DNA from: Escherichia coli
GTDB taxonomy: Bacteria > Pseudomonadota > Gammaproteobacteria > Enterobacterales > Enterobacteriaceae
Strand: one strand, 5' to 3'
NCBI RefSeq assembly: GCF_051903065.1
Contig: NZ_CP178438.1
Length of the DNA: 64,000 nt
Shown piece by piece: positions 52,546-52,956 of the stretch (positions are counted from its first letter, which is position 1; each line of letters starts with the position of its first letter). The notes under the pieces are model-generated. The model saw only the letters and a program-made list of their open reading frames with translations, had not been told where the DNA came from and did not search any database. Made by a program: the position numbers and the translations under genes.

Positions 52546-52956
52546 ATGAAGTGGCAACAACGTGTTCGTGTCGCAACGGGTCTAAGTTGCTGGCAGATTA
52601 TGTTGCATTTACTGGTAGTGGCGCTGCTGGTGGTGGGCTGGATGAGTAAGACTCTGGTTCACGTCGGCGTGGGATTATGCGCACTGTATTGTGTCACGGT
52701 AGTGATGATGCTGGTGTTTCAGCGCCACCCCGAGCAACGCTGGCGTGAGGTGGCAGACGTGCTGGAAGAGCTGACCACGACCTGGTATTTTGGCGCAGCG
52801 CTGATTGTGCTGTGGCTGTTGTCCCGCGTACTGGAAAACAACTTTTTGCTGGCAATTGCAGGGCTGGCAATCCTTGCCGGCCCGGCGGTAGTGTCTTTGC
52901 TGGCGAAAGATAAGAAGTTACATCACCTTACGTCTAAACATCGCGTACGCCGCTGA
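52546..52956 (+). CDS. ybhQ: Inner membrane protein YbhQ
   Basis: 136-aa four-TM ORF; 3' end overlaps convergent ybhR by 39 bp. Confidence 0.85.

Follow-up and report, generated by a model that had tools for sequence, protein, structure and literature searches.

The genes ybhQ and ybhR of Escherichia coli converge so closely that the coding sequence of each ends inside the other, and the locus raises the question of whether this overlap is genuine, how it has been kept, and whether it ties the expression of one gene to that of the other. We examined it in a stretch of E. coli DNA of 64,000 nucleotides (here called the window; coordinates are those of the window unless MG1655 or another locus is named). 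The explanation that we favor, and hold with good confidence, is an ancient dual-coding tail-to-tail overlap in which the signals for the 3' end of ybhQ are embedded in ybhR and the convergent transcripts are stopped by Rho. The coding features at the junction are as follows.

52546 to 52956, + strand: ybhQ coding sequence, 136 aa, a small membrane protein of the PF11076 inner-membrane protein family
52918 to 54024, − strand: ybhR coding sequence, 368 aa, an ABC-2 type transporter permease and the last gene of the cecR-ybhG(hlyD)-ybhF-ybhS-ybhR cluster
52918 to 52956, both strands: dual-coding overlap, 39 bp, antiparallel codon register

Geometry of the overlap and identity of the genes

In the open reading frame listing of the window, ybhQ and ybhR are opposite-strand frames that share the bases of their 3' ends, that is, tail-to-tail overlapping genes. 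The common bases number exactly 39 (52918 to 52956), so that the convergent overlap put forward in the original prediction is exact in its coordinates, with open reading frames and RefSeq annotation in agreement. The 13 terminal codons of ybhQ lie opposite the 13 terminal codons of ybhR, and YbhQ residues 125 to 136 plus stop are the mirror of the last 12 residues and stop of YbhR. At one border the reverse complement of the ybhQ Leu-125 codon TTA (52918 to 52920) is the ybhR stop TAA, and at the other the ybhQ stop TGA (52954 to 52956) is the reverse complement of a ybhR Ser codon, TCA, located 12 codons ahead of the ybhR stop. Common convergent overlaps amount to a few bases, and 39 bp is longer than those. 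The amount of intergenic DNA between the two genes is zero, which leaves no room there for a separate terminator of either ybhQ or ybhR.

Both genes are genuine and conserved, as indicated by their curated families, by 817 YbhQ homologues, and by the presence of both in 80 further species. The YbhQ product matches PF11076 (YbhQ, 2.4e-73), with the model covering residues 1 to 132, and the YbhR product matches PF12698 (ABC2_membrane_3, 3.8e-51). Database variants of YbhQ with 127 to 165 aa exist, mostly as singletons on short contigs. RefSeq/PGAP records an identical CDS pair, again sharing 39 bp, in a strain whose sequence is 100% identical across the 1001 bases that were searched, and the gene order there is cecR-hlyD(ybhG)-ybhF-ybhS-ybhR (−), ybhQ (+), and ybhP-clsB-ybhN (−). 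Two same-strand overlaps of operon-typical size are found in the same neighborhood, one of 4 bp between clsB and ybhP (51652 to 51655) and one of 8 bp between ybhS and ybhF (55161 to 55168). The RefSeq record of the identical strain places a DUF3969-family pseudogene, interrupted by an internal stop, and a small hypothetical gene in the interval between ybhL and ybhN (approximately 48863 to 49454).

Conservation, chance, and the protein under constraint

An antisense frame in this register is closed solely by the codons TTA, CTA, and TCA, which together account for 1.9% of codons across six window genes and 3.5% of those in ybhR. Because so few and such rare codons close it, an open run of the length of the overlap is expected by chance; for 12 consecutive open antisense codons the probability is approximately 0.79. 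The open antisense frame is thus unremarkable by itself, and the end of ybhQ would simply be read from the reverse complement of the end of ybhR, in a frame that is naturally almost stop-free. The upkeep of the overlap across species exceeds chance, judging from the sequences compared. Of 5426 complete E. coli genomes, 5423 carry the 1-kb junction region (at least 95% identity), and the exact 39-bp overlap is present in 68 of 81 Enterobacteriaceae loci from about 19 genera, where the 81 loci comprise 80 recovered by scanning a single genome from each species and the RefSeq E. coli locus, which duplicates the window. These genera include Escherichia, Citrobacter, Salmonella, Leclercia, Enterobacter, Kluyvera, Yokenella, and Atlantibacter, as well as Buttiauxella, Cedecea, Siccibacter, Mangrovibacter, Trabulsiella, some Kosakonia, and others. 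The overlap stays at 39 bp despite upstream indels in YbhQ (135 to 139 aa). Its only length variant among overlapping loci is the 48 bp of Kosakonia cowanii (L052:3373-3420), in which a Ser-to-Thr change at ybhR position −12 (counted back from the ybhR stop) removes the ybhQ TGA. In Escherichia albertii NBRC 107761 (L005:529-576), ybhQ has an in-frame stop at codon 16 and the 39-bp junction DNA is intact; this ybhQ is likely a pseudogene, or else the stop is an assembly error.

The same data bear on the idea that the overlap is an artefact, with the stop of ybhQ or ybhR misannotated or missequenced and no true overlap present. A sequencing error at these stops had been named as what might undo the original prediction, and it is excluded by an arrangement kept in thousands of genomes and in 68 species. 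The artefact explanation is ruled out by the RefSeq agreement together with the E. coli and cross-species data; it also conflicts with the retention of the ybhQ stop at a synonymous site of ybhR (TCA in 65 of 65 cases) and with the reach of the Pfam YbhQ model over residues 1 to 132, and we regard its probability as practically negligible.

Across the 81 loci, the YbhR tail is kept with or without the overlap, and the YbhQ tail is wholly replaced where the overlap has been lost. Synonymous codon choice in ybhR offers a second view of the constraint, in tests that ignore shared ancestry among the loci. Codon −12, which supplies the ybhQ stop, is TCA in all 65 cases in which it encodes Ser, and codons −11, −10, and −8 are almost always GCG in the overlap loci. 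At codon −6, TTT is preferred 63:4 in overlap loci versus 4:8 in non-overlap loci (Fisher 8e-6, kinship ignored). The two Arg codons −5 and −4 use five or six synonymous codons, the YbhQ residues that mirror them vary freely, and codons −13 to −15 vary freely as well. The synonymous sites of ybhR are therefore frozen from −12 to −6 and free from −5 to −1, a pattern that ignores phylogenetic non-independence. It is consistent with selection that preserves the ybhQ stop and the basic residues K131, R133, R135, and R136; alternatively, the GCG and TTT preferences could reflect a G-poor + strand suited to Rho loading rather than YbhQ residues. We suggest that the C terminus of YbhR is constrained for its own sake, that the basic tail of YbhQ (..KHRVRR) would be largely its mirror image, and that extra selection may retain the ybhQ stop and some of the basic residues.

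The overlap may thus have had an overprinting origin. It resembles tail-to-tail genes formed by overprinting or stop displacement in that a 3' end runs into the antisense of its neighbor up to the next in-frame stop, and in that one partner (YbhR) is constrained while the tail of the other (YbhQ) is its mirror. It differs from overlaps of that type in a length that is exactly fixed across about 19 genera.

Eleven loci are without the overlap, with gaps of 2 to 206 bp between the genes. YbhQ departs from its usual sequence exactly at codon ~125 in Raoultella, three Kosakonia, two Enterobacter sp., and one mislabelled Citrobacter, and its replacement tail of about 20 residues (..FGLHQGGSAANP..HR) is encoded by the left arm of a repeat. 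The repeat, which is ERIC-like, sits directly 3' of the ybhR stop (L071:3436-3618, L073, L076, L025, L027, L028, L036, L062, and L074). In E. coli, 4,651 genomes hold matches to the Raoultella spacer, 15,736 in all at unannotated places (median, 4 intergenic places per genome), and the Raoultella/Kosakonia spacer aligns with the repeat of the E. coli hsdM-hsdR intergenic region. Against both standard ERIC primers the spacer repeat agrees at 17 to 18 of 22 positions, where shuffled sequences typically reach 11 to 13 of 22. We name it ERIC-like rather than ERIC, since the primers are not matched at 3 or fewer mismatches and 4 to 5 are needed, a level still well beyond that of shuffled sequences. 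The likeness to the dispersed ERIC/IRU repeats lies in the spacer of the non-overlap species, the primer matches, and the intergenic dispersal; the comparison is limited to species without the overlap, and the repeat is absent from the window. A different insertion separates the genes in Phytobacter diazotrophicus and P. ursingii (L029:3400-3440 and L031), where an 18-bp spacer is an inverted copy of the last codons of ybhR and makes a perfect hairpin spanning the ybhR stop. More distant YbhQ homologues (33 to 40% identity, 121 to 128 aa) have short basic tails and adjoin ybhL in reduced genomes, and no ybhR neighbor was seen beside the five examined, two of which are on contigs too short to show neighbors. 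The overlap is probably ancestral within the Enterobacteriaceae and broken secondarily. Since it has been lost in several lineages, the coding overlap is probably dispensable rather than essential.

Transcript ends, an embedded stem-loop, and Rho

The original prediction also held that both transcripts must cross the coding end of the partner. The following features bear on this claim.

52961 to 52995, + strand: stem-loop of 14 pairs in the ybhQ 3' UTR, 5 nt past the ybhQ stop and within ybhR codons −25 to −14
53006 (MG1655 825080), + strand: ybhQ mRNA 3' end by Term-seq, 50 nt past the ybhQ stop and 89 nt inside ybhR
52923 to 53065, + strand (ybhQ-sense RNA): C-rich, G-poor rut-like stretch, C 31 to 37%, G 15 to 21%, C/G 1.6 to 2.0
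52560 to 52923, − strand: C-rich RNA antisense to ybhQ, past the ybhR stop, C/G 1.1 to 2.6

The primary 3' end of ybhQ was mapped by Term-seq at MG1655 825080 (Adams et al. 2021, PMC7815308, supplementary file 1); the offset between MG1655 and window coordinates was checked on two sequences, and the end falls 11 nt beyond the stem-loop. The same study reports a Rho region on the + strand at 825182 (window ~53108; Rho score 3.95, p 5e-7) and another on the − strand at 824929 (window ~52855), 63 nt past the ybhR stop (score 3.85, p 2e-7), coordinates that are imprecise in that they were drawn from comparisons of 800-nt windows (PMC7815308). On the − strand, the downstream/upstream read ratio is 0.23 in untreated cells versus 0.90 with bicyclomycin (PMC7815308). 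No ybhR 3' end is mapped in the published Term-seq data. Both strands thus combine published bicyclomycin-sensitive readthrough with C-rich, G-poor RNA, the marks of Rho terminators. That each transcript crosses the coding end of its partner is borne out by the Term-seq end 89 nt inside ybhR, by the Rho regions on both strands, and by the published listing of the pair as an excludon (see below). A second Term-seq 3' end lies inside ybhQ at 52616 (MG1655 824690), 71 nt into the open reading frame, and is scored there at 4.9 as an intrinsic terminator and at 0.6 for Rho (PMC7815308). It is 11 nt past a hairpin at 52558 to 52605 and may be a site of premature termination or processing.

The stem-loop past the ybhQ stop is stable (fold of 52940 to 53010: ΔG, −23.9 kcal/mol; z, −3.5), and its pairing is kept in 88% of cells over 79 distinct sequences, compared to 29 to 49% in slid controls. 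The synonymous sites of ybhR in the stem arms are nearly frozen, with codon −16 being GCC in 63 of 63 overlap loci versus 6 of 9 without overlap. The stem shows hardly any true covariation, Trp-Pro codons holding its 3' arm fixed. A strand-specific selection on the stem read from G·U wobble was rejected, the asymmetry of 89.7% paired on the + strand versus 86.9% on the − strand being too small. With similar pairing on the − strand and slight covariation, selection on the ybhQ-sense stem-loop RNA is not proven by these alignments. An Rfam search of 52300 to 53400 (E of 1 or less) found no known RNA family, and a consensus terminator scan returned no intrinsic terminator at the ybhQ/ybhR junction and only weak hairpins within coding sequence.

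A strong hairpin that is stable on both strands could suggest a shared bidirectional intrinsic terminator in the coding overlap, stopping both transcripts. No U-tract follows the hairpin, however, as the + strand continues AGACUAUUCC and the − strand GACAGGGUCAGC, and the consensus scan made no call at it. As read on the − strand, the hairpin comes before the ybhR stop, in translated sequence, and bicyclomycin raises readthrough about 4-fold on both strands, which points to Rho. A bidirectional terminator is therefore extremely improbable. The ybhQ end is better compared with ends that arise by Rho termination and trimming to a protective stem-loop (Dar and Sorek 2018, PMC6061677; Adams et al. 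2021, PMC7815308), which it resembles in the C-rich tract past the stop, the bicyclomycin-sensitive readthrough, and a 3' end 11 nt past a stem-loop without a U-tract. The difference is that the stem-loop and rut-like tract lie within the coding sequence of a convergent gene, alongside the codons of YbhR.

Readthrough in the other direction could be envisaged as a noncontiguous operon, in which cecR-ybhGFSR transcripts cross ybhQ in antisense and continue into ybhP-clsB-ybhN, with ybhQ nested on the opposite strand. The order ybhR (−), ybhQ (+), ybhP-clsB-ybhN (−) fits this arrangement, and there is no − strand intrinsic terminator between ybhR and ybhP. Nevertheless, the Rho region about 63 nt past the ybhR stop, with its read ratio of 0.23 versus 0.90, argues against such passage, and ybhQ-ybhR is absent from the three noncontiguous operons of MG1655 reported with ExcludonFinder (PMC12288877). 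We consider a noncontiguous operon highly improbable.

Under the favored explanation of a dual-coding overlap with Rho-stopped transcripts, ybhQ transcripts from a σE-type promoter would enter ybhR and be stopped by Rho, and the RNA 3' end would be trimmed back to the conserved stem-loop in the ybhR coding sequence. Transcripts of ybhR would in turn enter ybhQ in antisense and be stopped by Rho within about 60 to 100 nt. As both mRNAs would end within the coding sequence of the partner, convergent transcription would yield complementary RNA over about 150 nt or more.

The σE-type promoter and excludon status

The promoter assigned to ybhQ lies just upstream of the gene.

52484 to 52512, + strand: σE-type promoter motif of ybhQ, GGAATTT-N17-TCTGA, 34 nt upstream of the start codon

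An exact GGAAYTT-N15-18-TCTGA motif occurs at the same position upstream of ybhQ in 54 loci. A 5-fold induction of ybhQ by σE has been reported (PMC2731931), and σE ChIP-seq in Salmonella places a site between ybhP and ybhQ (PMC4577112). The gene is thus a member of the σE regulon with a conserved σE-type promoter. The ybhQ-ybhR pair is also among the 165 convergent excludons of E. coli MG1655 listed with ExcludonFinder (NAR 2025, PMC12288877), having turned up in at least 50% of the 58 RNA-seq samples. As in the convergent excludons of that list, these are converging opposite-strand neighbors whose transcripts overlap at their 3' ends in vivo according to published data. For most listed excludons the overlap is confined to 3' UTRs (mean intergenic distance, 95 nt), whereas in ybhQ-ybhR the coding sequences themselves overlap (PMC12288877).

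These observations invite the hypothesis of a functional, σE-driven excludon, in which the overlap is kept for expression control. Envelope-stress-induced ybhQ transcription would collide, or form an RNase III-cleavable duplex, with the cecR-ybhGFSR mRNA at its 3' end, so that the YbhFSR transporter would be expressed less, or the effect would run the other way. The place of the pair in the published list, the 5-fold σE induction with its conserved promoter, the retention of the arrangement in 68 of 81 loci, and transcripts that end inside each other are all consistent with this hypothesis. On the other hand, we found no pair-specific data on ybhQ or ybhR altering the expression of the other in the literature and supplements consulted, and Rho restricts antisense reach on both strands. 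Insertions in Raoultella, Kosakonia, Phytobacter, and others broke the overlap and both genes were retained, and constraint on the YbhR C terminus together with the cost of changing the YbhQ tail explains the conservation equally well. We therefore consider a functional excludon unlikely. A more elaborate version, in which the overlap and its embedded stem-loop form a putative σE-operated switch, so that envelope stress fires the ybhQ promoter and thereby cuts the YbhFSR efflux transporter or shields ybhP-clsB-ybhN from readthrough, appears to us quite unlikely. If true, it would tie envelope-stress signalling to a membrane transporter purely by gene geometry.

Collectively, the overlap is real, old, and already annotated, its transcript overlap has already been published, and it is ordinary; the earlier rating of it as a minor point was apt. 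By itself it has little importance and opens no new question. Coupling of ybhQ and ybhR expression by antisense or transcriptional interference, as suggested in the original prediction, would be plausible but, in our judgment, probably weak or conditional. In the favored explanation of a dual-coding overlap, the locus provides a clean, deeply conserved case in which the stem-loop and Rho-loading tract of one gene would be written in the codons of another, and insertion of ERIC-like repeats has supplied natural variants in which the overlap is undone. The ybhQ-ybhR pair is thus a handy test case for whether catalogued excludons have regulatory effects, possibly between the σE response and the YbhFSR transporter.
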